A DNA stretch of 64,000 nt, from NCBI RefSeq assembly GCF_041661885.1, contig NZ_JBAZTL010000009.1:3381-67380 (forward strand), written 5' to 3'. Shown here piece after piece: positions 31,060-64,000 of this stretch (within the stretch, counting starts at the first letter, position 1; each line of letters starts with the position of its first letter). The position numbers were made by a program, and so were the translations under genes. Under the pieces are notes generated by a model. The model did no database searches. It was not told where the DNA came from and saw nothing but the letters and a program-made list of their open reading frames with translations. The DNA comes from Sphingomonas sp. Lineage in GTDB: Bacteria; Pseudomonadota; Alphaproteobacteria; Sphingomonadales; Sphingomonadaceae.

Positions 31060-32190
31060 ATGACCTCTCCGCGCATCCTCGTTATCTTCGGCACCCGGCC
31101 CGAAGCGATCAAACTCTTTCCCGTGGTTGCGGCGCTCAAGGCGCAGGGTGGCCTTGATGTGCGCACCTGCGTGACCGCGCAGCATCGCGGGCTGCTCGAC
31201 CAAGTGCTCAGCATCGCCAATCTGCGCCCCGATATCGATCTCGACCTGATGGAGCCGGGCCAGACGCTCGACCGCCTGACCGCGCGGCTGCTGATCGGGC
31301 TTGGCGATGTGATGGATGCCGAAAAGCCCGACCGGGTGATGGTGCAGGGCGACACCGCCACTGCGATGGTCGGTGCGCTGGCGGCATATTATCGCAAGGT
31401 GCCGGTCAGCCATGTCGAGGCGGGCTTGCGCTCGGGCGACATTTACCAGCCCTGGCCCGAGGAAGTGAACCGCCGGATCGTCGCGCCGATCGCAGACCAG
31501 CATTTCGCGCCGACCGAGACCGCCGCCGACGCACTGCGCCGCGAAAATATCGCCCCCGCGACGATCCACGTCACCGGCAACACCGTGATCGATGCGCTCT
31601 ACGCAACACGCGCCAAGCTCGCCGCCGACCCCACGCTCGCCAGCGGGCTCGACGGTATTGCGCAGCGTTTCGCGGGCAAGCGCATCATCCTGGTCACCAC
31701 CCACCGGCGCGAGAATTTCGGTGGCGGCATGGACAATATCGCGCACGCGCTCGCCCGCATCGCCGCGCGCGATGACGTGGCGATCCTGTTCCCGATGCAC
31801 CCCAACCCCAATGTGGTGGAGGCGATGAACCGCGTGCTGGGCGACCGGTCCAACATCGCGCGGATCGATCCGCTCGATTACCCCCACTTTATCCGCGCGC
31901 TGGAGCTGTGCGACATCGCGCTGACCGATTCGGGCGGCGTGCAGGAGGAAGCGCCCGCGCTTGCCAAGCCCGTGCTTGTGATGCGCGAGACGACCGAACG
32001 CCCCGAAGGCGTAGCGGCAGGCACCGCCAAGCTGATTGGCACCGATCCCGAGCGGATCGTTTCCGAAATATCAACCCTCCTCGACGACAAGGGCGCGTAC
32101 CAGGACATGGCACGCGCCCACAATCCGTTCGGCGACGGCCATGCGTCCGGCAGGATCGCAAAGGTAATCGCCGATGGTTTCGGATGCTGA
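31060..32190 (+). CDS. wecB: UDP-N-acetylglucosamine 2-epimerase (non-hydrolysing)
   Basis: FGTRPEAIK, HVEAGLRS, PEEVNR, TDSGGVQEEAP. Confidence 0.96.
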   Translation: MTSPRILVIFGTRPEAIKLFPVVAALKAQGGLDVRTCVTAQHRGLLDQVLSIANLRPDIDLDLMEPGQTLDRLTARLLIGLGDVMDAEKPDRVMVQGDTATAMVGALAAYYRKVPVSHVEAGLRSGDIYQPWPEEVNRRIVAPIADQHFAPTETAADALRRENIAPATIHVTGNTVIDALYATRAKLAADPTLASGLDGIAQRFAGKRIILVTTHRRENFGGGMDNIAHALARIAARDDVAILFPMHPNPNVVEAMNRVLGDRSNIARIDPLDYPHFIRALELCDIALTDSGGVQEEAPALAKPVLVMRETTERPEGVAAGTAKLIGTDPERIVSEISTLLDDKGAYQDMARAHNPFGDGHASGRIAKVIADGFGC

Positions 32191-33472
32191 ACTGAAGGTT
32201 GTCGTGGTCGGGCTGGGCTATATCGGCCTGCCGACCGCCGCCGTGATCGCGCGCACGGGTGCCAAGGTGCTCGGCATCGACGTGTCGGAACATGTCGTCG
32301 AAACGGTCAATTCGGGCAAAATCCATATCGAGGAAGTCGATCTCGACGGCCTCGTCTCGGGCGTGGTCGCGCGTGGCACCTTGCGTGCGGCGACACAGAT
32401 CGAACCCGCCGATGTGTTCGTCATCGCAGTGCCGACGCCCTTTGCCGACGATCATGCGCCCAATATCGGCTATGTCCTGCGCGCCGCGACCACCATTGCC
32501 GCCGTGCTGAAGGCAGGCGATGTCATCATCCTCGAATCGACCTCCCCCGTCGGCACGACCGAGAAGGTGCGCGACTTGCTCGCGCAATTGCGGCCCGATC
32601 TGAAGGTGCCCGGCAAGACCGGCGAGAGCGCCGACATTGCCATCGCCTATTGCCCCGAGCGCGTTTTGCCGGGGCGCATTCTGGTCGAGCTGATCGACAA
32701 TGACCGTGTGATCGGCGGCATCACCCCGCGTTGTGCGCGGAAAGCGCTGCAATTCTACCGCCGCTTCGTGCGCGGCGCGTGCGTCACCACCACCGCGCGC
32801 GCGGCGGAGATGACCAAGCTGACCGAAAACGCGTTTCGCGACGTCAACATCGCCTTCGCCAATGAACTGAGCCGCGTCGCCGACACGATGGAGGTCGATG
32901 TGTGGGAGGTGATCCGCCTCGCCAACCGCCACCCGCGCGTCAACATCCTCTCGCCCGGCCCCGGCGTCGGCGGGCATTGCATCGCGGTCGATCCGTGGTT
33001 CCTGGTTCATGCCGATCGCGACAACACCCCGCTGATCCGCACCGCGCGCGAAGTGAATGACGCCAAGATCGACTATGTCGTCGAGCGCGCCGAGGCGATG
33101 GTCGCGGCGCATCCGGGCGCGCGCGTCGCCTGTCTGGGCCTCGCCTTCAAGGCCAATATCGACGATTTCCGCGAGAGCCCCGCACTCAAGGTGGCGACCG
33201 CACTCGCGCAGCGCTTCGGCGATCGGCTCGACGTGGTCGAGCCTTATACCCGCGCCCTGCCCGCTGCGTTTGACGGCACTGGTGCGACGCTGACCGACAT
33301 CGATACCGCGATCGAGACATGCGGTATCATGATCGTGCTGGTCGACCATGATGTGTTCAAATCGGTGCCGGTCGATGAGCGCGCCGACAAGATCGTCTAT
33401 GACACGCGCGGCATCTGGCCCGATCAGCCGCGCGCGCCTGCTCGCACGGAAGCGTTGCGCCTCGCCAGCTAA
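32174..33472 (+). CDS. wecC: UDP-N-acetyl-D-mannosamine dehydrogenase
   Basis: GLGYIGLP, ESTSPVGT, CPERVLPG, GPGVGGHCI, FRESP. Confidence 0.95.
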   Translation: MVSDAELKVVVVGLGYIGLPTAAVIARTGAKVLGIDVSEHVVETVNSGKIHIEEVDLDGLVSGVVARGTLRAATQIEPADVFVIAVPTPFADDHAPNIGYVLRAATTIAAVLKAGDVIILESTSPVGTTEKVRDLLAQLRPDLKVPGKTGESADIAIAYCPERVLPGRILVELIDNDRVIGGITPRCARKALQFYRRFVRGACVTTTARAAEMTKLTENAFRDVNIAFANELSRVADTMEVDVWEVIRLANRHPRVNILSPGPGVGGHCIAVDPWFLVHADRDNTPLIRTAREVNDAKIDYVVERAEAMVAAHPGARVACLGLAFKANIDDFRESPALKVATALAQRFGDRLDVVEPYTRALPAAFDGTGATLTDIDTAIETCGIMIVLVDHDVFKSVPVDERADKIVYDTRGIWPDQPRAPARTEALRLAS

Positions 33473-33490
33473 GGCCTGATAGGGAACGCC

Positions 33491-34528
33491 ATGTCGACCG
33501 ATCCCATCCTCGTCACCGGTGTCGCCGGGTTCATCGGTATGCACGTCGCGCGCGCGCTGCTGGCGCGGGGTGAGCACGTCATCGGCATCGATAATTTCAA
33601 CGATTATTATCCCGTCAGCCTGAAGGAAGCGCGCGTCGCGGCGATTGCGGCAGAGGCAGACGGCCGCTTCACGCTGCACCGCGTCGATTTCGCCGATCAT
33701 GCCGTGCTCGATGCCGCGCTCGGGTCGGCGCACTTTTCCCGCATCGTCCATCTCGGGGCCCAAGCCGGGGTGCGCTATTCGATCGACAATCCGCGGGCCT
33801 ATATCCATTCGAACATCGCAGGGCACCTCAACCTGCTCGAACTCGGGCGGCAGCGCGGCGTCGCGCATCTCGTTTATGCGTCGTCCTCCTCCATCTATGG
33901 CGGCGATGCGAACGTCCCGTTCAAGGTCGATGACCGCGCCGACCGACCCTTGTCGCTCTATGCAGCAACCAAGCGCGCCGACGAGTTGATGAGCGAAACC
34001 TACGCGCATCTCTATCGCCTGCCGCAAACGGGGTTGCGCTTCTTCACGGTCTACGGGCCGTGGGGGCGGCCCGACATGGCAATGTGGCTGTTCACCAGCG
34101 CGATCCTCGAAGGTCGCCCGATTCAGGTGTTCAACAACGGCGATATGCGGCGCGATTTTACCTATATCGACGATATCGTCGCCGGGATCATCGCCTGCCT
34201 CGACCATCCGCCTGCGGACGACGGCAGCATCAAGGCCGGCGGCAGCCCGGCCCCGCACCGGCTCTACAATATCGGCAACCACCGCTCGGAGCGGCTCGAC
34301 CGGCTGATCGACCTGATCGAGGCGGCGTGCGGCAAGCCCGCGATCCGCATCAACGCGCCGATGCAGCCGGGCGACATGCAGGATACCTTCGCCGACATCA
34401 GCGCGATCCAGCACGACCTTGGCTTCGCGCCGACCACGCCGATCGATGTCGGCGTACCGCGCTTTGTGGAATGGTATCGCGGTTACAAAGAGCACGGATC
34501 TTCGCAAACGCAGCACTGGACTGGCTAG
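33491..34528 (+). CDS. UDP-glucuronate 4-epimerase-like SDR
   Basis: TGVAGFIG, AQAGVRYS, YAATKRADE, FFTVYGPWGRPDMA, RDFTYIDD. Confidence 0.88.
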   Translation: MSTDPILVTGVAGFIGMHVARALLARGEHVIGIDNFNDYYPVSLKEARVAAIAAEADGRFTLHRVDFADHAVLDAALGSAHFSRIVHLGAQAGVRYSIDNPRAYIHSNIAGHLNLLELGRQRGVAHLVYASSSSIYGGDANVPFKVDDRADRPLSLYAATKRADELMSETYAHLYRLPQTGLRFFTVYGPWGRPDMAMWLFTSAILEGRPIQVFNNGDMRRDFTYIDDIVAGIIACLDHPPADDGSIKAGGSPAPHRLYNIGNHRSERLDRLIDLIEAACGKPAIRINAPMQPGDMQDTFADISAIQHDLGFAPTTPIDVGVPRFVEWYRGYKEHGSSQTQHWTG

Positions 34529-34572
34529 GACAGGCTGCTATGGCTCGGGCTTCATATGCCGGGGACATGTAG

Positions 34573-35673
34573 ATGACGAAGACCGCGCTGATCACCGGGA
34601 TCACCGGGCAGGACGGGGCCTATCTTGCCGAACTGCTGCTCGCCAAGGGCTATGAAGTCCACGGCATCAAGCGACGTTCGTCCTCGTTCAATACCGGCCG
34701 GATCGACCATCTCTATCAGGACCCGCACGAACTCGGCGCGCGGTTGCACCTGCATTATGGCGACATGACCGATTCGATGAATTTGACGCGGATCGTCCAG
34801 GAAACCCGGCCCGACGAAATCTACAATCTGGCGGCGATGAGCCATGTTCAAGTCAGTTTCGAAACCCCCGAATATACCGCCAATGCCGACGGCATCGGTA
34901 CGCTGCGCCTGCTCGAGGCGATCCGGCTGCTGAAGATGACCGAGACCACGCGCATCTATCAGGCGTCGACGTCGGAGCTGTACGGGCTGGTGCAGGAAGT
35001 GCCGCAGTCGGAAACCACGCCCTTCTACCCGCGCTCACCTTATGCCGCCGCCAAGATGTACGCCTATTGGATCACGGTGAATTACCGTGAGGCCTATGGA
35101 ATGCACGCCTCCAACGGCATCCTGTTCAACCATGAAAGCCCGCTGCGCGGCGAGACCTTCGTCACCCGCAAGATCACCCGCGCCGTCGCGGCGATCCACC
35201 TTGGCCATCAGGATATGCTGTGGCTCGGCAATCTTGACGCCAAGCGCGACTGGGGCCATGCGCGCGATTATGTCGAGGGCATGTGGCGGATCGTGCAACA
35301 GCCTAAGGGCGACGATTTCGTGCTGGCGACGGGCGTTACGCAAACCGTGCGCTCGTTCGTCGAACTCGCCTTTGCCGAGGTCGACACGCAGATTTCGTGG
35401 AGCGGCGAAGGCGTCGATGAGGTCGGCGTCTGCGCCAAGACCGGCAAGACGCTGGTCAAGGTTGATCCGCGCTATTTCCGCCCGACCGAAGTCGATTTGC
35501 TGATCGGCAATCCCGCCAAGGCCAAGCGCGTGCTCGGCTGGGAAGCGACCACCACGCTCGGCGAATTGTGCGCGGAAATGGTGCGCGAGGATTTGAAGGT
35601 CATCGCGCGCGAGGCCGCGCAGCGCCGCCCCGACGAAGAGCGCCCCGCCTCGCTTTATGCGATCAAGGGCTGA
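34573..35673 (+). CDS. gmd: GDP-mannose 4,6-dehydratase
   Basis: [36 protein letters not shown]. Confidence 0.97.
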
Positions 35674-35678
35674 ACCGC

Positions 35679-36623
35679 ATGACCGTCCCCTTCTCCCTTG
35701 AGAACAAGCGCGTCTGGGTTGCGGGCGAGCGCGGCATGGTCGGGCGCGCGATCGTGCGGCGGCTGGCCGGGGAAGGCTGCACGATCGTCTCGCCCGAGCG
35801 CCGGATCGATTTGCGCGACCAGGCAGCGACCTTCGCCTGGCTGGACGAAGCGAAAATCGACCTGATCTTCCTCGCCGCCGCCAAGGTCGGCGGGATTGCC
35901 GCGAACAACGCGTTTCCGGGTGAGTTCCTCTACGACAATCTGATGATCGAGGCCAACGTGATCGAAGGCGCGCGCCGCGCCAGGGTCGCCAAGCTGGTGT
36001 TCCTCGGCTCGTCGTGCATCTTCCCCAAGATGGCGCCGCAACCGATCCCCGAAAGCGCGCTGCTGACCGGGCCGCTCGAGCCGACCAACGAATGGTATGC
36101 CATCGCCAAGATCGCCGGGTTGAAGCTGTGCGCCGCCTATCGCCGCCAATATGGCTGTGACTTCATTTCCGCGCAGCCGACCAACCTGTACGGCCCATTC
36201 GACAATTTCGATCTCGAATCGAGCCATGTCCTGCCCGCGCTGCTGCGCAAGGCGCATGAAGCGAAGCTGGCGGGCGCCGCCGAGATGACGGTATGGGGCA
36301 GCGGCACGCCACTGCGCGAATTCCTGCATGTCGACGATCTCGCCGACGCGCTGGTGTTCCTGGCGCAGACCTATTCGGCCGAAGATTTCGTCAATATCGG
36401 CACGGGCGAGGAATTCAGCATCGCCGAGCTTGCGCATATGGTGAGCGCGGCGGTCGGCTTTCCGGGCACGCTGGTGTTCGACGCGACGCGCCCCGACGGC
36501 ACGCCGCGCAAGCTGATCGACACCACGCGGCTGCAGGGCCTGGGCTGGAAACCGTCAATCCCGATGCAGCGCGGGCTGGCGGAGGTGTATGACTGGTTCC
36601 TGGAGCACCGCGCATCCGCCTGA
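35679..36623 (+). CDS. fcl: GDP-L-fucose synthase
   Basis: AAKVGGI, GSSCIFPK, YAIAKIAG, PTNLYGP, REFLHVDD. Confidence 0.95.
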   Translation: MTVPFSLENKRVWVAGERGMVGRAIVRRLAGEGCTIVSPERRIDLRDQAATFAWLDEAKIDLIFLAAAKVGGIAANNAFPGEFLYDNLMIEANVIEGARRARVAKLVFLGSSCIFPKMAPQPIPESALLTGPLEPTNEWYAIAKIAGLKLCAAYRRQYGCDFISAQPTNLYGPFDNFDLESSHVLPALLRKAHEAKLAGAAEMTVWGSGTPLREFLHVDDLADALVFLAQTYSAEDFVNIGTGEEFSIAELAHMVSAAVGFPGTLVFDATRPDGTPRKLIDTTRLQGLGWKPSIPMQRGLAEVYDWFLEHRASA

Positions 36624-36665: not shown

Positions 36666-37442
36666 ATGCCCTTCATGAAAAAAGCCCTAAAACGCAGTGC
36701 CCGTTTCCTGCAGCGTGTCACCGGCCTTGACCCGAAGGCCTTGGCCAATGCCCGCTATTTCCCGCGTTATTGGCGCGAATTGCAGGCGTTTCGGGCGCAA
36801 GGCGGCACGGTCGAGCGACTATGGCCGATTCTGGGGGATTATCACGACAGTTCGGGCTCGGCCTCGGGCCATTATTTCCATCAGGATTTGCTGGTGGCGC
36901 AATTCATCTATACCGCCAATCCCGACGCGCATCTGGACGTAGCCTCGCGCATCGACGGGTTCGTTGCACATGTCGCCACGTTCCGGGCGATCGACGTGCT
37001 CGACATCCGCCCGCTGCCACCGACCGCGCACGCCAATATCCGCTTCGTCCAGGCCGATCTCATGCAGCCGCAACCCGAATTGCAGGCGCGCTATCCCTCG
37101 GTCAGTTGCCTGCACGCGCTCGAACATTTCGGGCTGGGCCGCTATACCGACAGCATCGACGTCAACGGTCACCGCAAGGGCTTCGACGCGATCGCCGCCT
37201 TGGTTGCGCCGGGCGGCGTATTCTATCTAAGCTTCCCGGTCGGGCGATCCCGCGTCGAATTCAACGCGCACCGCGTCTTCGCGCCGGGCGAACCGCTGGA
37301 ATGGGCGGACGGTCGCTTTACACTCGAGCGCTTCGACTATGTCGATGACGCTGGCGCGTTGCACGTCTCCGCCAAGGTCGAGGATGCCGCCGCGCTCGAT
37401 TATGGTTGCGGCATTTATACGCTGCGCAAGGCTGACCAATAG
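36666..37442 (+). CDS. DUF268 domain protein (methyltransferase-like)
   Basis: YFHQDLLVA, SRIDGFVAHVA, SCLHALEHFGLGRY, FNAHRVF recognised as the DUF268 pattern. Confidence 0.75.
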   Translation: MPFMKKALKRSARFLQRVTGLDPKALANARYFPRYWRELQAFRAQGGTVERLWPILGDYHDSSGSASGHYFHQDLLVAQFIYTANPDAHLDVASRIDGFVAHVATFRAIDVLDIRPLPPTAHANIRFVQADLMQPQPELQARYPSVSCLHALEHFGLGRYTDSIDVNGHRKGFDAIAALVAPGGVFYLSFPVGRSRVEFNAHRVFAPGEPLEWADGRFTLERFDYVDDAGALHVSAKVEDAAALDYGCGIYTLRKADQ

Positions 37443-37460
37443 TCAGCCTTGCGCGAAGCC

Positions 37461-38213
37461 TCAGGCTTCCAGAGTGAAGATCGTATTGATCGAATCGGCG
37501 TAAAACTCGCGATAGCCGTTCGCCAGCAGGCTGGCGCGCACTTCACGATGCGATGTCTGCAACGACGCGTCGCCTTCAAAATCGCTGTGCCGATCGATCA
37601 GCTCGACGATCATCACGCGTGGACGCCACGCGCTTTGCAGCAACGTCGCGACAATCGCTTGCTCGCCCCCCTCGACATCGATCACCATCAAATCGAAACG
37701 GTGCGGGATCGCATTGCGTTGAAAAACCGTCTCCAGTCGGTCGGTACGGATTGACTGCGACGTTGCGGCCCGAGACGCGTCCTGCGCCCAACTGATGGTG
37801 TTATAGAGTTCCGCAGTCGGCGCGTTCATGGTCGAAAGCGGGCCCATCACGCTGATCTCTGCGGTGCCAGCGGTGTCGGCAATACCGACATTCTCGGCAA
37901 CCACGCGATTGAACAGGTGGCGCGCCCGCGCGCGCGCGTGATAAGCGGGGATCGGTTCAACATAGACGCCGCGCCACCCCTGATCCGCAAGAAACGACGT
38001 GTTCGACCAGGTTTCCCCGTCAAATGCGCCGACTTCCACGAAAACACCCGTATCGGGTGCCAGGCCCAGCGCGCTGTATTTCTCCCGAAGCTGCGGGATT
38101 TGGCACGTCGCCGAAATCGTTGCTTGCCCCGACAATTTCGCCTGAAGGCCGCGCGAAACGGCGAAGCCCAAGGAGCGGCCAAGCTCCAAAACACTTTTGG
38201 CCTGCTTACGCAT
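37461..38213 (-). CDS. FkbM-family methyltransferase
   Basis: FVEVGAFDG..SNT, VEP, IDVEGGE motifs. Confidence 0.88.
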   Translation of the reverse strand: MRKQAKSVLELGRSLGFAVSRGLQAKLSGQATISATCQIPQLREKYSALGLAPDTGVFVEVGAFDGETWSNTSFLADQGWRGVYVEPIPAYHARARARHLFNRVVAENVGIADTAGTAEISVMGPLSTMNAPTAELYNTISWAQDASRAATSQSIRTDRLETVFQRNAIPHRFDLMVIDVEGGEQAIVATLLQSAWRPRVMIVELIDRHSDFEGDASLQTSHREVRASLLANGYREFYADSINTIFTLEA

Positions 38214-56522: not shown

Positions 56523-58796
56523 TTACCCTACCAGCTCGATCCTGCGCTTGCTGTTGCCGGTGTCGTCTTCGCCGCCATAGCTATAGGCCTTATTGCCGTA
56601 CCCATAGCCATAGCCATAACCGTAGCCATAGCCATAGCCATAGCCCGTGCTCTTCGCGTTGACCTTGGTCAGAATCGCACCAATCACCACTCCGCCCGAA
56701 CCACGCAAGCGCTCGACCGCGCTGACCATCGCCGGACGCCGCACTGCGGACGCTTGAATAATGAAGACCGTCGCCTGACACATCGAACTCAACAACGGCG
56801 TGTCGGCCAGGCCGAGCACCGGTGGTGCATCGACAATCACCACATCAAATTCCGCCTCGCACTCGGCAATGATGTCGCGCATTCTGCTACTCGACAGAAG
56901 TTCGGCCGGGTTTGGCGGGACGTGTCCGCCCGGCATCAACCACAAATTGGGGAAGCGGGTACCGACGACATGCGCGCGCAATTTGGTATCGGATGTGAGC
57001 AAATTCGCCAGTCCGACGATATCGGCACCTTCCTCCGGCGTAATGCGGAAGGTCGGCTTGCGCATATCGGCATCGATCAACAGCACGGACATGCCGCGCC
57101 GCGCGAAATTGTTGGCAATCGCAAAGGCCGAGCTCGATTTGCCTTCCGCCGCGCGCGAACTCGCCATCACGATCGACTTCGGCACGCCATGCGCGGTTGC
57201 GAATTCGATCGCGGTACAGGCCGAGAAATAAGCCTCCGACACCGCTCCCTTGGGGTCCGAAATCGCCTCGTAGAGTGAGACACCCTTGCTGGCCGATGGA
57301 ATCGCGCCGAGCGGCGTGATGTTGATCTTCTTGCGAATGTCGTCGGGCGACTTGATCGTATCGTCGATAAATTCGACCAGAAAGGCAAGACCAATCCCGA
57401 GGGCCGCGCCAATCACCAACGCGAGCGCCAAATTCGTCGACAGGCGCGGGCTATAGGGTCCGCCGGGTGGGTCTGCCCGATCGACGATCGACGCGACGCT
57501 GGCACCAACACCGCTTGCTACGCCAATGCCCTTGTAGCGCTGAAGCAGCGCGTCATACAGGGTGCGGTTGGTATCCACCTCACGCTGCAAAATGTTGTAC
57601 TGAATACCGCGACCGCGCGTATCCAAAACCGACGATTTCAATTGCGCAACCTTGGCGCGCAACTCGTTCTCGCGCGATACCGCCGCCTGATATTCGGACT
57701 TCGCAGCCGATACCACGCCGCCGCGCTGACGCTGCAATTGTGCATCGATCGCGGTAATGTGCGAGCGCAATTGCTGCATCAACGGAAAATCGGGCTTATA
57801 GAGGCTCAGCTTCTGGTCATATTCCGACTGTGCCTTTGCCCGTTCCGCAACCAGGCCCTGAACCGTCGGGTCGCCGATAATTTGGGCGGTGTGGTCGTTG
57901 CTGGCGTTCTGCTTGTATTTCTCTTCCGCCAAAATGCGCGCGTTGATCGCCTCAGCCAACGAGGCGTTGATCGCCGTCAACGATGCGGTATCGAGGGAAG
58001 TACTGTCGGAGCTGGATCCCTTGCCTTCCCCGCCACCAATCTGAACCAGCCCCTGCGCCTGCGCATATTGCACGAGCGCACGCTCAGAAGCTTCTAGCGC
58101 GACTTTCGTGCTGCTGATCCGGTTGAGCAAAAATTTTCGCGCATTGGCCGTCGCATCATATTTCCGCTGCAAATCGGATGCGATGAAGCTGTCCGCAAAA
58201 CCGTTAACCACCATCGCCGCAGTGGCAGGATTACCGCTTTCGAAGCTGATCGTCACCAGGCGACTGCTGGCGACCGGCAGCACGCTGAACCCGCCAACCG
58301 CCGTACCGGTCGCAATTTTCTCCCGCGTGGCGGGGTCCGCACTTTGCGGAGCGAACGCCGGATTTTTAGCGAGGTTCAAGTCCCGAACCACCCGCTCCGC
58401 CAGCGATCGGCTGCGCAAAAGGCCAAATTGCGTGGTCAGAAATTGCGGGTCGCGCACCGCCATCGGCTGAATGCCGCTCCCCTCAATCAGCTCCGCCTGG
58501 GGTTGGGTGATTTCGAGCGATGCCATCGCGCGATACCGTGGCGGGGTCAGCAGGGTCAGCACCACCGCGACAATCCCGGCGGCAAGGACGCAAACCAGGA
58601 TCAGCCAGCGCCACCGATAAAGAACTCGAAAAATTTCGCGTGGATTGAAAGCCGCCTCGTGATGCTCGGGCACCGCGAATTCACCGGGGATCGCCCTACC
58701 ATTGGGAAACGCCACCGCTCCCGCCCCGGCGGACACCACTCGCTGTGGACCGCCTTGCGCTCGATCCGAATCAACTATTGTGTTCATGTGTTCCAT
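56523..58796 (-). CDS. wzc: Polysaccharide co-polymerase / tyrosine autokinase (GumC/Wzc)
   Basis: Two TMs flanking a coiled-coil periplasmic region; EGKS, LIDADMRKP, PPNPAELL, IVDAPP; C-terminal Tyr cluster. Confidence 0.93.
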   Translation of the reverse strand: MEHMNTIVDSDRAQGGPQRVVSAGAGAVAFPNGRAIPGEFAVPEHHEAAFNPREIFRVLYRWRWLILVCVLAAGIVAVVLTLLTPPRYRAMASLEITQPQAELIEGSGIQPMAVRDPQFLTTQFGLLRSRSLAERVVRDLNLAKNPAFAPQSADPATREKIATGTAVGGFSVLPVASSRLVTISFESGNPATAAMVVNGFADSFIASDLQRKYDATANARKFLLNRISSTKVALEASERALVQYAQAQGLVQIGGGEGKGSSSDSTSLDTASLTAINASLAEAINARILAEEKYKQNASNDHTAQIIGDPTVQGLVAERAKAQSEYDQKLSLYKPDFPLMQQLRSHITAIDAQLQRQRGGVVSAAKSEYQAAVSRENELRAKVAQLKSSVLDTRGRGIQYNILQREVDTNRTLYDALLQRYKGIGVASGVGASVASIVDRADPPGGPYSPRLSTNLALALVIGAALGIGLAFLVEFIDDTIKSPDDIRKKINITPLGAIPSASKGVSLYEAISDPKGAVSEAYFSACTAIEFATAHGVPKSIVMASSRAAEGKSSSAFAIANNFARRGMSVLLIDADMRKPTFRITPEEGADIVGLANLLTSDTKLRAHVVGTRFPNLWLMPGGHVPPNPAELLSSSRMRDIIAECEAEFDVVIVDAPPVLGLADTPLLSSMCQATVFIIQASAVRRPAMVSAVERLRGSGGVVIGAILTKVNAKSTGYGYGYGYGYGYGYGYGNKAYSYGGEDDTGNSKRRIELVG
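56595..56645 (-). repeat. Hexanucleotide repeat encoding (Gly-Tyr)8 of Wzc
   Basis: GGCTAT-based units with 3 variant units. Confidence 0.9.
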
Positions 58797-58835
58797 ACCC
58801 TTGCGATGCCGCCGCACCCCGCAGCGCGCATCACA

Positions 58836-59534
58836 TCAGAAACGAGTAAAAAGACCGACCAGCGGAACAGTCTGCAACGCCGTTTGGAGCAACTTGGCAT
58901 TTTGATTGCCATCCACCACCACAATGTCGTTAGCGAAAATCTCGGGATCTTTTCCGGCGCCACGGCGAATGTCCGTAAGATCGAACGCCGCTGCCATGCG
59001 CTGGCCGTTGATCGTCCGGAAAATGACCGTGCGGCGCGGATTTGCGGAATCGTTCGTCCCGTGCGCCAGCGCGATTGCCTGCAACAACGTGGATTTACCC
59101 GCGATCGCATAAACCCCCGGGGCGCCGACCGCACCATCCACCGTAATGCGTTGGCTGGAAGCCGATTTGAGCTGCACCTGAACCTTCGGGTTGCGAAGAT
59201 AGCTGCGCTCAAGCGCGACGGTGACATCGTGCGCGGCATCGTCAGGCGACCGGCCCGACAACACCAGACTGCCGATCAACGGCAATTGGACCCGACCAAG
59301 TTCGTCGACGGCATAATCGCCCGAATATTCGGGCACCCCGAAGACGCTGATCGTCAGCACGTCGGACGGCCCGATCTTGTAAGCCTCGGTCACGGGAATG
59401 GCGGCAGGCGCGTCGGGTGCCACAAAGCCTGACGGATTATAAGGCACCTTTCCGCCGCGGGTAGCGCACCCGGTCAGCGACACCAATGCCAACAGCCCCG
59501 CAGTCATCCAGCCAAGAGATGCGCGCATTCTCAT
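58836..59534 (-). CDS. wza: Outer-membrane polysaccharide export lipoprotein
   Basis: Lipobox LTGC, YKIGPSDVL, GRVQLPLIG, YLRNPKV, SLBB-like VDGAVGAPG; SD GAGGA. Confidence 0.9.
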   Translation of the reverse strand: MRMRASLGWMTAGLLALVSLTGCATRGGKVPYNPSGFVAPDAPAAIPVTEAYKIGPSDVLTISVFGVPEYSGDYAVDELGRVQLPLIGSLVLSGRSPDDAAHDVTVALERSYLRNPKVQVQLKSASSQRITVDGAVGAPGVYAIAGKSTLLQAIALAHGTNDSANPRRTVIFRTINGQRMAAAFDLTDIRRGAGKDPEIFANDIVVVDGNQNAKLLQTALQTVPLVGLFTRF

Positions 59535-59760
59535 CTGTATCCTCACATCATGCGCCGGCAAAAGTCACCGCTCTGCCCAAGCCTCTAACGTGCAGGGGAT
59601 TAGCGTCAAGCATCGACGTGTCGCTTCGAGGCAATGATCGTGTCGCCAACGACCGCTCCTTTGCGTCGCGGCCATCTCGCGCCAGTTAATGCGAAGCGAC
59701 CTCGGCAATTGACATCACGTCGCAACGCCGAGCAAGGGTTGGCGGATTCGGGGGGCCCAA

Positions 59761-60747
59761 ATGACCAGTGCACAACCTACAGTGCTCGTGACCGGTGGTG
59801 CCGGCTACATCGGCAGCCATGCCTGCAAGGCGCTGGCCGCCGCTGGATATCTGCCGGTTGCGCTCGACAGCCTGGTTTATGGTCATGAATGGGCCGTGCA
59901 ATGGGGACCGCTGGAGCAAGGCGACATTCTCGATCGTGCCTGGCTCGACCGGATCCTCCAGCAATATCGCCCGGCGGCGATCATGCATTTTGCGGCCTTC
60001 GCTTATGTGGGGGAATCGGTCACCAATCCCGGAAAATACTATCGCAACAACGTCGCGGGCACCCTGACGCTGCTCGAGGCGATGCGCGACAATGGCGTCG
60101 GTCGCTTTGTATTTTCGAGCACCTGCGCGACTTATGGTATCCCCGACACGGTCCCGATCGTCGAATCCACCATCCAGCAACCAATCAATCCCTATGGCGC
60201 CTCCAAGCTGATGGTGGAACGGATGTTGGCAGATTTCGAGGCCGCCCACGCGCTGCGCTGGATCGCGTTGCGCTATTTCAACGCCGCCGGCGCTGACCCG
60301 CACAACATGATCGGCGAAGCGCATGATCCCGAGACGCACCTCATTCCGCTGGCGCTCGATGCGGCGGCAGGGCGCGGCCCTGCGCTAACCGTGTTCGGGG
60401 ACGATTATAACACCCGCGACGGCACCTGCATTCGCGATTATATTCACGTTACCGACCTTGCCCAGGCGCACGTGCTGGCGCTGACCGCGCTGGAGCGCGG
60501 CGAGGCATCGCAACCAATTAACCTGGGCAACGGAGCCGGGTTCACCGTGCGGGAAGTAATTGCCGCAGTCGAACGCGTAACCGGGCTTTCCGTACCCCAC
60601 ACCATCGGCCCCCGTCGTGCCGGGGACCCGCCTTCGCTCATCAGCGATGCCGAACGAGCCCGGACGACACTAGGTTGGCGACCGGCTTATGCCGACCTCG
60701 ACCAGATCATCGCGACAGCGTGGGCCTGGCATCAGCGACGAATGTAA
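59761..60747 (+). CDS. galE: UDP-glucose 4-epimerase
   Basis: GGAGYIGSH, VGESV, YGASK, LRYFNAAGA, IRDYIHV. Confidence 0.94.
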   Translation: MTSAQPTVLVTGGAGYIGSHACKALAAAGYLPVALDSLVYGHEWAVQWGPLEQGDILDRAWLDRILQQYRPAAIMHFAAFAYVGESVTNPGKYYRNNVAGTLTLLEAMRDNGVGRFVFSSTCATYGIPDTVPIVESTIQQPINPYGASKLMVERMLADFEAAHALRWIALRYFNAAGADPHNMIGEAHDPETHLIPLALDAAAGRGPALTVFGDDYNTRDGTCIRDYIHVTDLAQAHVLALTALERGEASQPINLGNGAGFTVREVIAAVERVTGLSVPHTIGPRRAGDPPSLISDAERARTTLGWRPAYADLDQIIATAWAWHQRRM

Positions 60748-60785
60748 CGCGGGCTACAAGCGTTACAAAGCTTCTCAGTCTGCGG

Positions 60786-62132
60786 TCACCCGGTCAACCC
60801 GACACTCGACGCTCGGAAGTCGGGGCGAGCCGCGCGATGCCGACTGAAGTATTCAGCTATAATAACAAGAATATAAGCCAATGCCATTGGCCACAGCACG
60901 AACATGGTGATGTTGCGCCCGAGATTGAATGTCAGGCCGATACCGAACAGAAACAGGCAAGCTCGTAAAATCGTACCTTGCGCCCACAAGCGAGCCAGAA
61001 AAGCGCACCAAAGCCCCATCAACGCCGCAGAAAAAATAGGGCCAAAGATAAAGCCAAACTCCAGCACCCCTTGACCAATCATTCCTGTCGAAATGGTCGC
61101 CACCACACCAATATCGCCGGAACCTCCACTAAATCCACGGGCGATCGCATAATCGATACCTATCAACGGTTTGTCGGCCCAAATTGCTCGTGGAATGATG
61201 TTGCCGAGCTCCTGCAAAATTCCCACACCAAAGGTCTGATTTAATATACCAGTCCTGATGAATCCAATACAATACGTTAATTCAGACGCCATATTTAGAC
61301 CGGCGTGGCCTTTATCCTGCAAATTCTGCACCGTATCGAATCCAAAATTTCGGAATGTCACAATAAGTCGCATAGCTCTTTCAATAAAAATCCACGATGA
61401 AATAAGTAAAAATACCTTCCATACAGGACTAATTTTAGAAAAAATGAGATATGAAAAAATCATAGGCACAAATACGGCCAATGTTACGTTTCTGCTTCCT
61501 TGCAGAAAAGCGTATGGCCATGAAATTAAAATAACAAGGATGCATATTATTTGCATTCTTCGCTTTTTTAGCAAAGGCAGAAGCATTCCAAATGCTGCCA
61601 GAACCAAAATATAAAAATACCCGGCTAACGATACCGCGAAACCCAACGATCCCGCATCTGCGCCAGCCGCCCTTAACCACATTGAGTTCCCATTACGCGC
61701 CTCTACGGGAAAAAGGGCTGTAATAATATCTCCATTCAGCCTAAAAATACCAATAGAAAGGAGAGTCAACCAAAAAAAGATGATATACTTCAAAATACTG
61801 TCTGCAGGCAAATTATCCGATTCAATTTTATTTATCTTTTTAGGAGTCATCATTGAATAAAATAAAGTGGCCATGAAACGAAATGCTATTAAGAAAATCA
61901 TTACCGCAACAAAGCTTGTACTAATCTCATCCGCAGAAAATGTATTCATCATGTCGACCGATTCAATCGGTTCTAGCATGTACCAACCAAGAACTGTCGC
62001 ATAGATCATGAGCGCGGGCGCTGCCCATTTTTCACGCCACCGCAGACCCGCTTCAAAAACCAACGCAGCCAGAACCGCCAGGGCAAGCCAATAGCCGTCT
62101 GGTAGCGACCAAATAATCCCCAGATCACTCAT
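60786..62132 (-). CDS. Low-GC multi-pass membrane protein, putative Wzy polymerase
   Basis: 448 aa, about 10-11 TMs, AT-rich core, located between GTs in a polysaccharide locus. Confidence 0.65.
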   Translation of the reverse strand: MSDLGIIWSLPDGYWLALAVLAALVFEAGLRWREKWAAPALMIYATVLGWYMLEPIESVDMMNTFSADEISTSFVAVMIFLIAFRFMATLFYSMMTPKKINKIESDNLPADSILKYIIFFWLTLLSIGIFRLNGDIITALFPVEARNGNSMWLRAAGADAGSLGFAVSLAGYFYILVLAAFGMLLPLLKKRRMQIICILVILISWPYAFLQGSRNVTLAVFVPMIFSYLIFSKISPVWKVFLLISSWIFIERAMRLIVTFRNFGFDTVQNLQDKGHAGLNMASELTYCIGFIRTGILNQTFGVGILQELGNIIPRAIWADKPLIGIDYAIARGFSGGSGDIGVVATISTGMIGQGVLEFGFIFGPIFSAALMGLWCAFLARLWAQGTILRACLFLFGIGLTFNLGRNITMFVLWPMALAYILVIIAEYFSRHRAARPDFRASSVGLTG

Positions 62133-62962
62133 CGCGACGCGATTCCCTTCTGATGCGAATCCGTGCCGAGCGCCCCGCGCAGAGACCGGTCGTTGATTTC
62201 AATCGCCAACATGAGTTCCGCCAGCACGCGTTGGAAACAATAATAGAGTCCCGCCCGACCGTCCCACACATATCCGCGCCAGAATAGCGTGTAGCCCAGC
62301 ATGATGAAGGGAGCAGGCCAGCCGCGCTTCCGAAGACGGTCGATCCGCTTCAAGGTGGTGCGTTCGACCGACAACAGATGTTCAGCCTCCGCCTGTGCAT
62401 AGCGAATCTGGCTTTGAAACCAGCGTCCGATCGGTTTGCGATCGTCATGCGCGATCTTGCCGGCAAGGGCATCCACCCTCCCCTCGACAAGCACGCGATG
62501 CCCGTGGCCGTCATTACGGTATCGCGCCAGCGAACGGCGATACAATACCGTGCGCGCTGGATATAGCGTGCTGCGCAATGGCGTGCCGAACACACAATAA
62601 ACGAAATCGGCCATGAAACCTGCCACCGCGCTTGGCGGATCGAGCCGCGCGATTTCCCGTTGCAACGCCTCGCTCAGAACATAGTCGGCGTCGAGCGAAA
62701 GCACCCACTCGGTTTCAATTTGATCGAGTCCAAAATTGCATTGCTCTGCGAAACTGTCGAACGCGCGGTGGACGACCCGAACGCGCGGATGCGCGGCAAG
62801 AATGTCCAGCGTGCCATCGGTACTACCGCTATCGACCACCACGATCGAGCGCGCCCACGCCAGGGAATCAAGCGTGCGCGCGATGTTTTCCTTCTCGTTG
62901 AAGGTCAAAATAAGCGGCGTCACGAGCTGCGAGAAAGGGCCAGGATCAAGCAGATCGGTCAT
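62129..62962 (-). CDS. Glycosyltransferase family 2
   Basis: ILTFNE, VDSGSTD, SLDADY; ATGA overlaps at both ends. Confidence 0.88.
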   Translation of the reverse strand: MTDLLDPGPFSQLVTPLILTFNEKENIARTLDSLAWARSIVVVDSGSTDGTLDILAAHPRVRVVHRAFDSFAEQCNFGLDQIETEWVLSLDADYVLSEALQREIARLDPPSAVAGFMADFVYCVFGTPLRSTLYPARTVLYRRSLARYRNDGHGHRVLVEGRVDALAGKIAHDDRKPIGRWFQSQIRYAQAEAEHLLSVERTTLKRIDRLRKRGWPAPFIMLGYTLFWRGYVWDGRAGLYYCFQRVLAELMLAIEINDRSLRGALGTDSHQKGIASR

Positions 62963-64000
62963 ATTACGACCGTATCGGGCCTCGGCCCCTCCCGCAACAA
63001 CCAGGCATAAACGTCGCGCATCTGCCGCGCGATCTGATCCCACGTATAATGTTGCGCAACCAACGCCCGGCCACACCGCCCGATCGCGCGGCGCGCTTGC
63101 TCGTCCAGACCGAAAAGATCACCCAACCCGCCCGCGATCGAATCCGCCGACGGGCCAACCTCGACCGCTGCACCTGCCTCGAACGGGGCGTGCAAATTGC
63201 AGGCACGCGTCATCGCCACCGGCAGTTCGTAGGCAAGCGCCTCCAGCACCGCCATCGGGAACCCCTCGCTGTGCGAGGCAAGCACGAAGGCATCGCTCGC
63301 CGCAAGCATCGCGGTCTTCTCGCGATCGTAGAGCGGGCCCGCAAACACCACGCGATCGGCGAAAGGGGAAGCGGCGGCGCGCGCCTTCAACGTGGCGAGA
63401 TAGTCCTCCGGCCCCCAGCCAGCGATGACGAAACACCAATCGGGATGATGCGCCGCCGCCGCCAGGAAACCATCGAGGGTGGCCAGAACGTTCTTCTTGG
63501 GATGAATTCTGCTGAGATAGAGCAAAATCCGGCGCCCCTGGGCCTTTGCCGCGCGTGCGGCGGCGGGAGCATCCTGCAGGTCAATGCTGGTCAGATCGGG
63601 CAACGTCACCCCATTTGGAATAATACAGACCGGACCGTTGACGCCGAACGCCCGCGCAGATTGCAACTCCGCCTCGGTATTGACGTGCAAACACGCGGCA
63701 TCGCGCAACGCGGCGCGTTCGTAGAAAAAGGCCGCAGCCCGCTTCTTCAGTTGCGCATTGCCGACCGCCCACGGTTCCAACATGCCGTTTGCCGTCGTTA
63801 CATATGGGCCGCCCGTCCGCCGATGCCACTGGTGCGCGAGCACCGATGTGTACATCCACAGCGCGTGCAAATGCACGATGTCGGCATCGGCGGCGCGGAA
63901 AATGTCGCGCAATTGCGGCGAATAGCCAAAGCCGTGCGGCCCCCGCAACGCGCCCACATGCACCGGAATTTGGCGCCAGGCGGGCAAATCCTTGGCTGTT
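62959..64000 (-). CDS. Glycosyltransferase family 4 (5' end beyond the window)
   Basis: LSRIHPKKN, SEGFPMAVLEAL. Confidence 0.9.
   Translation of the reverse strand, partial: TAKDLPAWRQIPVHVGALRGPHGFGYSPQLRDIFRAADADIVHLHALWMYTSVLAHQWHRRTGGPYVTTANGMLEPWAVGNAQLKKRAAAFFYERAALRDAACLHVNTEAELQSARAFGVNGPVCIIPNGVTLPDLTSIDLQDAPAAARAAKAQGRRILLYLSRIHPKKNVLATLDGFLAAAAHHPDWCFVIAGWGPEDYLATLKARAAASPFADRVVFAGPLYDREKTAMLAASDAFVLASHSEGFPMAVLEALAYELPVAMTRACNLHAPFEAGAAVEVGPSADSIAGGLGDLFGLDEQARRAIGRCGRALVAQHYTWDQIARQMRDVYAWLLREGPRPDTVVI

Follow-up and report, generated by a model that had tools for sequence, protein, structure and literature searches.

A Sphingomonas capsule-type polysaccharide island that carries Wzm/Wzt and no Wzx gene

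For the ABC-exported O-antigens of Escherichia coli O9a and Klebsiella, the last steps are ligation to lipid A-core by WaaL and transport by Lpt, and the dual-chain cell-wall polysaccharides of Lactococcus and Enterococcus consist of an ABC-exported rhamnan and side chains that are flipped and polymerised separately. ABC-dependent capsules exit Gram-negative cells via a PCP and an OPX protein, and this combination with the ABC exporter is the only established Gram-negative envelope route for an ABC-made capsule (review PMC12220298). [quoted passage not shown] 2014, PMC4241560); the same work names further, separate polymerases and a flippase, placing the capsule MOP flippase outside this cluster (PMC4241560). 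In Sphingomonas LM7, cluster B carries wzyB (RS19300), a gene assigned to the "Wzy family", next to Wzc (RS19310), a GT4 and an EpsG-family gene, and deletion of wzyB yields denser cells (Hershey lab, J Bacteriol 2024, PMC11340318).

The window analyzed here, a stretch of 64,000 nucleotides from a groundwater Sphingomonas, contains a capsule-type polysaccharide gene island of ~41 kb whose unusual mixture of genes is real. The island begins at 31060, immediately after a ThiF-family gene (30032-31024), and its right end was placed at ~71.4 kb, ~8 kb beyond the window end, using a contig (L083) that is 100% identical to window positions 53360-64000. Genes in the additional ~8 kb encode two GT4 enzymes, a metallophosphatase, a small secreted protein, RmlB and a pair of NTP-transferases; FKBP genes come after these, and all intergenic gaps in the locus are at most ~270 bp. 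Every component listed in the earlier note, from the ABC exporter to the single priming transferase, was recovered by Pfam and NCBIfam searches where it had been placed or close by. The sphingomonad host considered there is likewise borne out, as TrpS and MurJ cluster at 90% identity or more with proteins of S. echinoides and other Sphingomonas, and homologues of the Wzy_C protein carry the names Sphingomonas or Sphingomonadaceae. The genes are as follows.

31060-32190, +, wecB-like UDP-GlcNAc 2-epimerase (Pfam Epimerase_2, 3.5e-116)
32174-33472, +, wecC-like UDP-sugar dehydrogenase (Pfam UDPG_MGDP_dh N, central and C domains)
33491-34528, +, NAD-dependent epimerase
34573-35673, +, GDP-mannose 4,6-dehydratase Gmd (TIGR01472 gmd, 588.9 bits, cut-off 415)
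35568-36623 (ORF; match from residue 46), +, GDP-L-fucose synthase Fcl (NF047922, 486 bits, just under the cut-off of 500)
36666-37442, +, DUF268-type methyltransferase (PF03269, 3.3e-11)
37461-38216, -, FkbM family methyltransferase (PF05050, 1e-19; TIGR01444 fkbM_fam, 46 bits, cut-off 37.7)
38244-39608, -, GT4 glycosyltransferase, distal part of the ABC operon (Pfam)
39494-40543, -, NAD-dependent epimerase/dehydratase, distal part of the ABC operon (Pfam)
40561-42750, +, AT3-SGNH O-acyltransferase, OafA-like (PF01757 and PF19040)
42757-44025, -, glycosyltransferase GT1_2 (Pfam Glyco_trans_1_2)
44015-45301, -, wzt (Pfam ABC_tran; Wzt_C 22.7 bits, below GA 30.4)
45298-46152, -, wzm (Pfam ABC2_membrane)
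46249-47175, -, glycosyltransferase GT2a (Pfam GT2)
~47123-47752, -, hexapeptide acetyltransferase (tblastn; matches WbbJ/WcaF-like models)
47686-48645, -, glycosyltransferase GT2b (Pfam GT2)
48777-50204, +, priming polyprenyl-phosphate hexose-1-phosphate transferase, PGT (Bac_transf PF02397, 9.1e-59; TIGR03025, 276.8 bits, cut-off 295.6)
50217-51452, -, WcaI-family GT4 (Pfam; NF007640, 195 bits, cut-off 276)
51452-52687, -, AT3 acyltransferase (Pfam)
52907-53866, +, SDR epimerase/dehydratase (Pfam)
53955-55340, -, Wzy_C-family protein, 461 aa (Pfam Wzy_C)
55340-56521, -, membrane-anchored protein, weakly TPR-like (Pfam/NCBIfam)
56523-58787, -, Wzc, PCP-2a tyrosine autokinase (Walker A/A'/B motifs, GYGYGY tyrosine tail)
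58836-59534, -, Wza, short OPX lipoprotein (Pfam/NCBIfam; lipobox LTGC)
59761-60747, +, GalE UDP-glucose 4-epimerase (TIGR01179, 439.6 bits, cut-off 262)
60786-62132, -, Pol448, second polymerase-like membrane protein (TIGR04370, 37.4 bits, 1.4e-9, cut-off 40)
62129-62962, -, glycosyltransferase GT2c (Pfam)
62959 to past the window end, -, glycosyltransferase GT4c, 391 aa in full (Pfam; L083 gene calls)

Gene calls in 50217-53866 were taken from a 96% identical strain (L080), and mapping to L083 places GT2c and GT4c in an operon that runs on outside the window with GT4d. The hexapeptide acetyltransferase had been overlooked in the first reading. The two methyltransferases, DUF268-type and FkbM, are candidates for glycan methylating or capping enzymes. 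The island has a single priming transferase, a large WbaP/WcaJ-type enzyme divergent from the ABC operon, with a likely start giving 430 aa, the length also of its orthologues in L082 and L084. Metatranscriptome contigs span wzt, wzm, PGT, Wzy_C, Wzc, Wza, Pol448 and GT4c.

The core of the ABC exporter cassette (42757-48645, minus strand) forms one operon of GT2b, the hexapeptide acetyltransferase, GT2a, wzm, wzt and GT1_2, in which the start codon of wzt (ATG) and the stop codon of wzm overlap. Residues 251-428 of Wzt are 39-51% identical to homologues with PF14524, marking the C-terminal domain, by sequence, as the cap-binding type. The cassette is kept in L001, L005, L082, L084 and L091. 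The last of these, a 62% relative, shares the wecB-like/wecC-like pair with its ThiF flank, the GT4 and epimerase/dehydratase downstream of wzt and GT1_2 on the same strand, and the DUF268 methyltransferase gene of the ABC block; it lacks at that position the AT3-SGNH O-acyltransferase, which in the window is opposite in orientation to the surrounding block. As in the O9a and Klebsiella O-antigen systems, an ABC-2 permease and a nucleotide-binding protein with a Wzt_C-type C-terminal domain are translationally coupled and share an operon with glycosyltransferases and methyltransferases. Unlike those systems, the cassette lies inside a Wzc/Wza capsule island, beside a WbaP-type PGT rather than WecA, in a genus without LPS (PMC11165598).

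These features raise the possibility of two ordinary neighboring pathways, which we regard as a serious contender although on the doubtful side: a Wzy-dependent capsule made by PGT, the GT4 and GT2 enzymes, Pol448, Wzy_C, Wzc and Wza, with Wzx or a promiscuous flippase encoded elsewhere, and an independent, cytoplasm-made, methyl-capped O-polysaccharide-like polymer exported by Wzm/Wzt, whose acceptor and outer-membrane route are not assigned to the island. The cassette is indeed self-contained, with four glycosyltransferases, an acetyltransferase, a methyltransferase, an epimerase and Wzm/Wzt with a Wzt_C-type domain, and its closest non-sphingomonad relatives, from other phyla at 53-60% identity, fit a mobile O-polysaccharide cassette. 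Capsule genes in Caulobacter are spread over more than one locus (PMC4241560), and deletion of the LM7 cluster A Wzx had no phenotype, a dispensability for which the authors invoke redundancy (PMC11340318). Against two pathways, the island has one priming transferase and contains no second ligase, PCP or OPX, leaving Wza-Wzc as its only PCP and OPX pair, and the classical route by WaaL to lipid A-core and then Lpt is unavailable in an LPS-free host (PMC11165598).

The earlier note saw no Wzx in view and proposed inspecting the sequence past 64000, where a wzx just outside the window, together with a complete lipid A pathway in the genome, would indicate two adjacent loci. A Pfam scan of all open reading frames found no MOP/Wzx flippase in 31,001-72,818, extending the absence from the window to the whole locus, while the same method finds Wzx in related loci. 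The only reading frames in this interval that reach 250 aa and have six or more hydrophobic segments encode the two AT3 proteins, Wzy_C, Pol448 and Wzm. No homologues of KpsS, KpsC or VexE were seen in the island.

Comparison with related loci bears directly on which exporter serves the island. In three genomes with Wzx-type loci (L003/L087, L088 and L089), Wzx lies between GT2c and the polymerase-like gene in the order GT4d-GT4c-GT2c-Wzx-(AT3)-Pol-GalE-Wza-Wzc-TPR-Wzy_C-Epi3-GT4b-PGT-Fcl-Gmd, and no Wzm/Wzt occurs within the 20-33 kb in view. Five related genomes have Wzm/Wzt, and no Wzx was seen in them. The ABC cassette lies beside PGT in the window, L080/81/83, L082, L001 and L005/L084/L091, and in Sphingomonas immobilis (L090) the very slot of Wzx, between GT2c and a polymerase-like gene, is taken by GT2-MT-Wzt-Wzm. 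Wzx and Wzm/Wzt are thus mutually exclusive in otherwise syntenic loci, an observation on ~9 species-level loci that are interrelated and recombining and not a statistical test. Two independent pathways sit poorly with this pattern, as Wzx is present in every close relative without the cassette and was seen in no cassette-bearing locus (L082 and L001 end short of the GT2c-Pol slot). In the window-type layout a distance of ~14 kb also separates the cassette from the empty slot of Wzx, so that gain and loss were separate events, yet they co-occur. Across a wider sample of related loci, 79 in all, from Sphingomonadales, Brevundimonas and Algimonas, the flippase candidates lying no more than 10 kb from the Wza-Wzc module were of MOP type in five, fused ABC in five and Wzm/Wzt in three, and no locus had two kinds; the 66 with none are favorable to two pathways.

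Wza, Wzc, the TPR-like protein and the Wzy_C protein are encoded by one operon (53955-59534, minus strand), and the order Wza-Wzc-TPR-Wzy_C, with the metallophosphatase, recurs in most of the 79 loci, the Wzb-like metallophosphatase of this island lying ~3 kb past the window end and ~7 kb from wza. Module genes have dN/dS values of 0.03-0.17. The gene set is the same as that of CCNA_00162-00168, with orthology judged from gene set and context, and in Brevundimonas loci homologues of the window Wzy_C adjoin Wza-Wzc; CCNA_00164 exceeds 620 aa, compared with 461 aa for the window protein, and Caulobacter is LPS-bearing, encodes its MOP flippase elsewhere and has a model without Wzm/Wzt, which the window island has (PMC4241560). 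Compared by layout, the module probably also corresponds to LM7 cluster B, a large island (~48 kb) for a cell-associated polysaccharide in the same genus, although the authors report wzx homologues there and no Wzm/Wzt, the reverse of the arrangement here (PMC11340318). The wzyB-type layout, with an EpsG-family gene nearby, occurs in 18 of the 79 loci.

The earlier note took the Wzy_C protein, which carries an HSDYLE motif, as a WaaL-like ligase of the ABC pathway. In this reading, a WaaL- or PglL-type transferase would move the Wzm/Wzt-exported glycan from undecaprenyl diphosphate to a non-lipid A acceptor, whether a glycosphingolipid, another lipid or a protein. We consider this unlikely, and we know of no polymer-bearing glycosphingolipid. 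The motif (NHAHSDYLE) lies inside the Pfam Wzy_C-matched region (residues 233-373), and as that family also includes Wzy polymerases, the match is not ligase-specific. The protein has no match to NCBIfam ligase or oligosaccharyltransferase models and no PDB sequence match. Its AlphaFold model (pLDDT 81.7) has WaaL 7TPG as top structural match (E 4e-5), a point in favor of a transferase, but the fold match is modest (TM ~0.5) and shared with FtsW and RodA, and Wzy polymerases are expected to have the same fold. The protein matches the export proteins in its conservation between genera, with 47 invariant columns and 33-40% identity to the window versus 41-50% for Wza and Wzc, which is not expected of a repeat-unit-specific polymerase, and separate polymerase candidates adjoin it: Pol448 here, the EpsG-family protein in those 18 loci and a second Wzy_C in three. 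The LPS-free genus described in the literature also suits a transferase. However, Wzy_C accompanies Wza-Wzc-TPR in most of the 79 loci whether Wzm/Wzt is present or absent, including those of LPS-bearing Brevundimonas and Algimonas, and is therefore linked neither to the ABC pathway nor to an envelope that lacks LPS. With the same gene set serving capsule export in LPS-bearing Caulobacter, it is no evidence for an unusual acceptor, and the LM7 authors regard its probable counterpart as a polymerase (PMC11340318). The ligase assignment of the earlier note is accordingly not supported in the form given there, while the sphingomonad host that it considered and its absence of Wzx stand, and its option of Wzm/Wzt acting for Wzx gains support from the comparison of loci.

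Pol448, with ten predicted transmembrane segments, is a candidate Wzy-like repeat-unit polymerase, and its counterpart adjoins Wzx in related loci. It lies within a low-GC patch (0.51 vs ~0.62 nearby) and its family is rare: 216 clusters out of 1.84 billion representatives pass E<=1e-3, and TIGR04370 is the only model matched by 28 of 47 members. In the Wzx-less lineage, Pol448 and the neighboring glycosyltransferase genes are intact and show purifying selection (dN/dS 0.136 for Pol448 and 0.06 for GT2c).

Our preferred explanation, which we put slightly short of an even chance, is one island with one export module in which Wzm/Wzt provides the inner-membrane export step. Rather than an O-antigen locus equipped with a ligase, the region would be a single island for a cell-associated polysaccharide, built of a fixed alphaproteobacterial core (Wza, Wzc, the TPR-like protein, Wzy_C and the Wzb-like metallophosphatase) with variable glycan genes around it. 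The lineage would be missing the Wzx gene and would have gained, beside its single priming transferase, an O-polysaccharide-type cassette of Wzm, the cap-binding-type Wzt, four glycosyltransferases, an acetyltransferase and a methyltransferase. The priming transferase would initiate an undecaprenyl-diphosphate-linked glycan, which cytoplasmic transferases would extend from locus-made GDP-L-fucose, UDP-ManNAcA-type and UDP-Gal precursors. After methylation and acetylation, the glycan would be moved over the inner membrane by Wzm/Wzt in place of Wzx, acted on at the periplasmic face by the Wzy_C protein and Pol448, and brought to the surface by Wzc and Wza. Weighing against this, a Wzx elsewhere in the genome would suffice, the scan covering the locus 31,001-72,818, and the cap-binding Wzt with the cassette's own four glycosyltransferases and methyltransferase looks like a self-contained, fully cytoplasmic polymer pathway. 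Such a pathway needs no Wzy, which would leave the role of Pol448 unexplained.

We know of no experimentally shown Wzm/Wzt pathway with a PCP-2a and an OPX. The Lactococcus and Enterococcus loci likewise combine an ABC-2 exporter and a Wzy-like polymerase for one composite glycan, but in Gram-positive cells with a flippase for the second chain, attachment to peptidoglycan and no OPX. The Group 2/3 and Vi capsule systems (KpsMT or VexBC, PCP-3, OPX; PMC12220298) likewise pair an ABC exporter with a PCP and an OPX, but they assemble their polymers on a lipid-Kdo or diacyl-HexNAc anchor, use a PCP that lacks a kinase domain and have no Wzy-like protein, whereas the window has a Wzc kinase and Wzy-like proteins. 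The exchange of Wzx and Wzm/Wzt between related loci is newly found here, and this mutual exclusivity lends comparative support to the suggestion in the earlier note that Wzm/Wzt could replace Wzx and feed Wzy, Wzc and Wza.

This island belongs to a known alphaproteobacterial type of capsule locus. What is unusual about it is not the Wzy_C protein; it is that an O-polysaccharide-type ABC cassette stands in the place of Wzx. Coding frames were chosen by third-position GC and genes were then named through Pfam and NCBIfam scans, yielding a gene map without gaps from 31060 to the end of the window. This map confirmed the component list of the earlier note, which had proposed a hybrid glycan locus here, down to the HSDYLE motif (NHAHSDYLE) in the protein it had called a WaaL-like ligase, referred to below as the Wzy_C protein.

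Genes of the island (window coordinates, strand, content)
31060-36623, +: wecB-like and wecC-like genes, epimerase, gmd and fcl (GDP-L-fucose)
36666-38216: DUF268-type methyltransferase (+) and FkbM methyltransferase (-)
38244-40543, -: GT4 and epimerase
40561-42750, +: AT3-SGNH acyltransferase
42757-48645, -: single operon of GT2b, hexapeptide acetyltransferase, GT2a, wzm, wzt and GT1_2
48777-50204, +: WbaP/WcaJ-type priming transferase (PGT), divergently transcribed (PF02397, 9.1e-59)
50217-53866: WcaI-family GT4 and AT3 (-), SDR enzyme (+)
53955-59534, -: single operon of wza, wzc, a TPR-like gene and the Wzy_C gene
59761-60747, +: galE
60786-64000, -: polymerase-like 448-aa protein (Pol448, in a low-GC patch), GT2c and GT4c
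Past the window, on contig L083: GT4 (same operon), divergent GT4, metallophosphatase, 147-aa secreted protein, rmlB, two sugar-nucleotidyltransferases and two FKBP genes

Against TIGR03025 the priming transferase scored 276.8 bits, slightly under the cut-off of 295.6. The GT4c protein of the window (P0121) gave access to contig L083, which matches window 53360-64000 at 100% identity and runs on for another 8.8 kb, so that the island spans about 41 kb. Upstream of 31060 lie the housekeeping genes lepA, secB, murJ, trpS, dnaA, fpg, ubiE, ubiB and coaBC and a ThiF-family gene. With dnaA (21024-22436, - strand; murJ, trpS and secB nearby, window 18234-22436) only 9 kb upstream, the island would lie near the probable replication origin region; no turning point in cumulative GC skew was seen within the window. 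Toward the window start, a reading frame at 3-2909 (- strand, open at the window start) encodes a protein of more than 968 aa with GH18 chitinase-like, polysaccharide deacetylase (CE4) and GT2 domains, the last resembling a chitin or PNAG synthase, and this protein may combine synthase, deacetylase and hydrolase functions for a GlcNAc polymer in one fused chain. A 1146-aa autotransporter (4824-8264, + strand) carries a beta-domain at its C-terminus and, close to its N-terminus, a weak trypsin-like protease signal. Two known systems were rejected as identities for the island: a PEP-CTERM/exosortase system, for which sub-threshold TIGR030xx matches fell far below their cut-offs with no exosortase present, and a sphingan (gellan-type) cluster, which differs in gene set and order (comparison logic of PMC11340318).

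The host is a Sphingomonas; a sphingomonad host was the condition from which the earlier note had reasoned. The TrpS and MurJ proteins of the window fall into clusters at 90% identity or more with those of Sphingomonas echinoides and several other Sphingomonas isolates, and homologues of the proteins encoded in the island carry the names Sphingomonas or Sphingomonadaceae. Metagenomes from groundwater, freshwater and drinking water contain the sequence again. In published descriptions of the genus, glycosphingolipids take the place of LPS (PMC11165598; bioRxiv 10.1101/2022.09.04.506512).

Across the island (31,001-72,818), no ORF of the Polysacc_synt, Polysacc_synt_3 or MurJ type was found, and ORFs that reach 250 aa and contain six or more hydrophobic segments encode only the two AT3 proteins, the Wzy_C protein, Pol448 and Wzm, none of which belongs to the MOP family. 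The same procedure did recognise Wzx genes in related loci, and relatives L087, L088 and L089 carry a Wzx of 507-510 aa at the syntenic position. The remark that no Wzx was in view thus holds past 64000 as well, with no wzx just outside the window on the L083 extension. The sole MOP protein of the window is the housekeeping MurJ (18234-19832), which was rejected as the missing flippase as it sits among the housekeeping genes secB, trpS and dnaA, and is further disfavoured by clustering at 90% identity or more with the MurJ of many Sphingomonas. The 147-aa ORF past the window was likewise rejected as a small flippase, since beyond a signal peptide it shows just one hydrophobic segment, at the C-terminus.

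The ABC cassette encodes an ABC-2 permease (Wzm; PF01061, 3.5e-17) and, adjacent to it, a separate ATPase (Wzt; PF00005, 7.6e-20), the wzt ATG at 45301 overlapping the wzm stop codon. Wzt itself scores 22.7 bits against PF14524 (Wzt_C), below the GA of 30.4; over its 178 C-terminal residues (251-428) it shares 39-51% identity (E 1e-36 to 1e-46) with the C-termini of PF14524-bearing homologues, and homologues with 53-60% identity over about 95% of its length come from several phyla and mostly carry Pfam Wzt_C. The DUF268-type and FkbM methyltransferases are candidate chain-capping enzymes, and a methyltransferase also stands alongside Wzm/Wzt in L091 (a 62% relative) and L090 (Sphingomonas immobilis). 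In L091 the cassette forms one run of GT2b, hexapeptide acetyltransferase, GT2a, Wzm, Wzt, GT1_2, epimerase and GT4; behind it come the DUF268 methyltransferase, wecC and wecB, and it stops at a ThiF flank shared with the window. The cassette has the look of a complete, capped O-polysaccharide unit, and cap-binding-type Wzt domains are typical of polymers finished in the cytoplasm. Both this domain and the self-contained look of the cassette speak for the main rival explanation, in which the island holds two independent pathways and a Wzx is encoded elsewhere, as do the unlinked or redundant flippases published for Caulobacter (PMC4241560) and Sphingomonas sp. LM7 (PMC11340318). We consider this rival a serious possibility, if a doubtful one.

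Close relatives of the island fall into three layouts.

Layouts among close relatives
Type A (L003/L087, L088, L089): GT4d-GT4c-GT2c-Wzx-(AT3)-Pol-GalE-Wza-Wzc-TPR-Wzy_C-Epi3-GT4b-PGT-Fcl-Gmd; no Wzm/Wzt in the 20-33 kb of view
Type B (L090, Sphingomonas immobilis): GT2-methyltransferase-Wzt-Wzm exactly between GT2c and a different polymerase-like gene; no Wzx in view
Type C (the window and near-identical strains, L082, L001, L005/L084/L091): ABC cassette beside the PGT in all; no Wzx between the GT operon and Pol in the loci reaching the GT2c-Pol slot (window strains, L005/L084)

At species level these loci number eight or nine, and every one of them carries Wzx or Wzm/Wzt; none carries both and none lacks both. 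Since some 14 kb separate the type C cassette from the empty Wzx slot, its gain and the loss of Wzx were separate events. More widely, among the best 79 loci related through the Wzy_C gene, 66 have no flippase candidate within 10 kb of the module (Wza, Wzc, TPR protein and Wzy_C protein, with the metallophosphatase), and the remaining 13 never have two kinds (five MOP, five fused ABC half-transporters and three Wzm/Wzt). Such fused half-transporters (ABC_membrane and ABC_tran, PglK/MsbA-like, 580-680 aa) were observed near the module in several other Sphingomonadales capsule loci (L086 12691-15646; L136 at about 13-15 kb; also L017, L021, L036, L048 and L069), directly adjoining an EpsG-family polymerase candidate in L086 and L136, and are a second possible non-Wzx flippase in this family of loci. 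Four metatranscriptome runs contain contigs that match wzt, wzm, the PGT gene, the Wzy_C gene, wzc, wza, Pol448 and GT4c with 90-99% identity, which fits expression of both halves of the island; DNA carry-over is also possible.

On the export side, a PCP-2a protein with a C-terminal tyrosine autokinase and an OPX protein are both present by sequence. Wzc contains Wzz, GNVR and AAA_31 domains (TIGR01007 163.8 bits, above the cut-off of 108), Walker A, A' and B motifs, and a tail with at least eight tyrosines, including GYGYGY. In two metatranscriptome runs the tail region (56523-56650, - strand) shows a 6-base insertion (CCATAG on the + strand, one extra Tyr-Gly) and other rearrangements, so strains seem to differ in how many phosphorylatable tyrosines they have. 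Wza (58836-59534, - strand) has Poly_export and SLBB domains and a lipobox (LTGC) in a short form of 232 aa, the E. coli protein having 379 aa. Short OPX proteins in other bacteria pair with a separate beta-barrel porin, and none was seen in the island. The Wzb-like metallophosphatase is found past the window end, at L083 5232-5996 (window numbering: about 66.8-67.6 kb) and some 7 kb away from wza, whereas in most related loci it precedes wza. It adjoins the conserved 147-aa secreted protein with its one C-terminal hydrophobic segment, a pair also seen in S. immobilis and several metagenome loci. The canonical order metallophosphatase-Wza-Wzc-TPR-Wzy_C occurs in about 40 of the best 79 genome loci, plus further metagenome loci. 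A metagenome scan with the Wzy_C alignment returned 77 loci, among which there were no new close-clade layouts, and a metagenome query with the single Wzy_C protein found none.

By gene list, a cluster of metallophosphatase, OPX, PCP-2a kinase, Wzy_C protein and a TPR-like protein or lipoprotein of roughly 400 aa, the module matches the capsule export cluster of Caulobacter NA1000 (PMC4241560). [quoted passage not shown] Brevundimonas homologues share 32-35% identity and the same context. In Sphingomonas sp. LM7, cluster B has wzyB, a gene of the "Wzy family", next to Wzc, a GT4 and a gene of the EpsG family, and wzyB deletion resulted in denser cells (PMC11340318); this layout recurs in 18 of the best 79 related loci.

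The Wzy_C protein matches PF04932 at 52.4 bits (GA 31.7). Its AlphaFold model (built with 28 homologues, pLDDT 81.7) has WaaL 7TPG as its top predicted fold match in the PDB (E 4e-5, TM 0.47-0.52), and the matches listed go from WaaL to the SEDS proteins FtsW and RodA with no Wzy polymerase entry among them. Wzy polymerases and PglL share the Wzy_C domain and the WaaL-like fold, and as fold and motif are thus expected in Wzy polymerases too, neither identifies a ligase. A profile search of PDB sequences gave no match even at E<=10, and no NCBIfam match was obtained at E<=1e-3, hence no curated ligase model, nor was the gene linked to core-oligosaccharide genes. Its relatives occur in at least 568 genomes (scan of one genome per species), and the best 79 loci, almost all Sphingomonadales with some Brevundimonas and Algimonas, mostly place it next to Wza, Wzc and the TPR protein. 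Its distribution is independent of Wzm/Wzt and of LPS status. This finding does not sustain its assignment as a WaaL-like ligase for the ABC pathway, and makes it improbable that the ABC product is joined by it to a glycosphingolipid or a protein. Across genera its identity to the window protein is 33-40%, with 47 invariant columns, compared to 41-50% for Wza and Wzc, and a separate, variable polymerase candidate stands beside it (Pol448 here, an EpsG-family protein in 18 of the best 79 loci, a second Wzy_C protein in three). This near-export-protein conservation, together with the separate variable candidate, tends to speak against the Wzy_C protein as the repeat-unit-specific polymerase. It might serve as a co-polymerase, transfer to an anchor or take part in a hand-over step.

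Pol448 is a candidate Wzy polymerase, and the Wzy_C protein is a second candidate. The alignment of Pol448 to TIGR04370 ("oligosaccharide repeat unit polymerase") covers almost the whole protein and scores 37.4 bits, under the cut-off of 40; for 28 of 47 full-length relatives of Pol448, this model is essentially the sole match. The family is a rare one: at E<=1e-3, the 1.84 billion representatives include 216 clusters of it. Between the window and a 96%-identical strain, the gene has 38 non-synonymous and 74 synonymous differences, and the resulting dN/dS of 0.136 indicates that it is maintained by selection. GC dips to 0.51 at 60001-62000, exactly over Pol448, between flanks of about 0.61-0.62, and its dS relative to the sister strain is about twice that of its neighbours (0.28 vs 0.08-0.17), which is compatible with recombination or horizontal exchange. 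Values of dN/dS above 1 with dN above 2 for PGT (vs L082 and L084) and GT2a (vs L084) were discarded, as they were taken to be codon-alignment artefacts.

In total, a coupled working of one island is favoured by the exclusivity pattern, by the presence of just one PGT, by a polymerase-like gene that is retained and under selection, and by the absence from the island of any further outer-membrane route. This reading is drawn from a small, mutually related set of loci, and we give it slightly below even confidence. One priming transferase would start the glycan, Wzm/Wzt would supply the inner-membrane export step, Wzy-like proteins would act in the periplasm and Wzc/Wza would export the product. 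ABC-made capsules elsewhere exit through PCP and OPX proteins (PMC12220298). The observation in the earlier note is confirmed and extended; of its interpretation, the part in which Wzm/Wzt stands in for Wzx gained support, and the part invoking an unusual acceptor for a ligase did not. A more specific proposal, possible but rather unlikely in this full form, is that within one clade of LPS-free Sphingomonas a Wzm/Wzt with a cap-reading domain took over the inner-membrane step of the Wzy/Wzc/Wza capsule pathway from Wzx. The ABC-2 transporter would then export undecaprenyl-diphosphate-linked, methyl-tagged units or blocks, which the Wzy-like proteins would polymerise or transfer and the tyrosine-kinase PCP and OPX would secrete; as a further possibility, the conserved Wzy_C protein may anchor the product to a glycosphingolipid. 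We know of no demonstration of such a fourth way of combining the classical assembly modules.

The textbook view derives bacterial surface glycans from three distinct assembly kits, namely Wzx/Wzy, ABC transporter and synthase. In the loci compared here, a cassette with an ABC-2 exporter repeatedly takes the place of the Wzx gene in an otherwise conserved Wzy/Wzc/Wza capsule island. If the two pathways are independent, the locus is ordinary and still provides a capsule island with clear limits and, for the order, an export module that is both defined and conserved. If the substitution is functional, the kits would be more interchangeable than assumed, which bears on the prediction of glycan pathways from genomes, on glyco-engineering, and on how sphingomonads assemble and export outer-membrane glycans without lipopolysaccharide.
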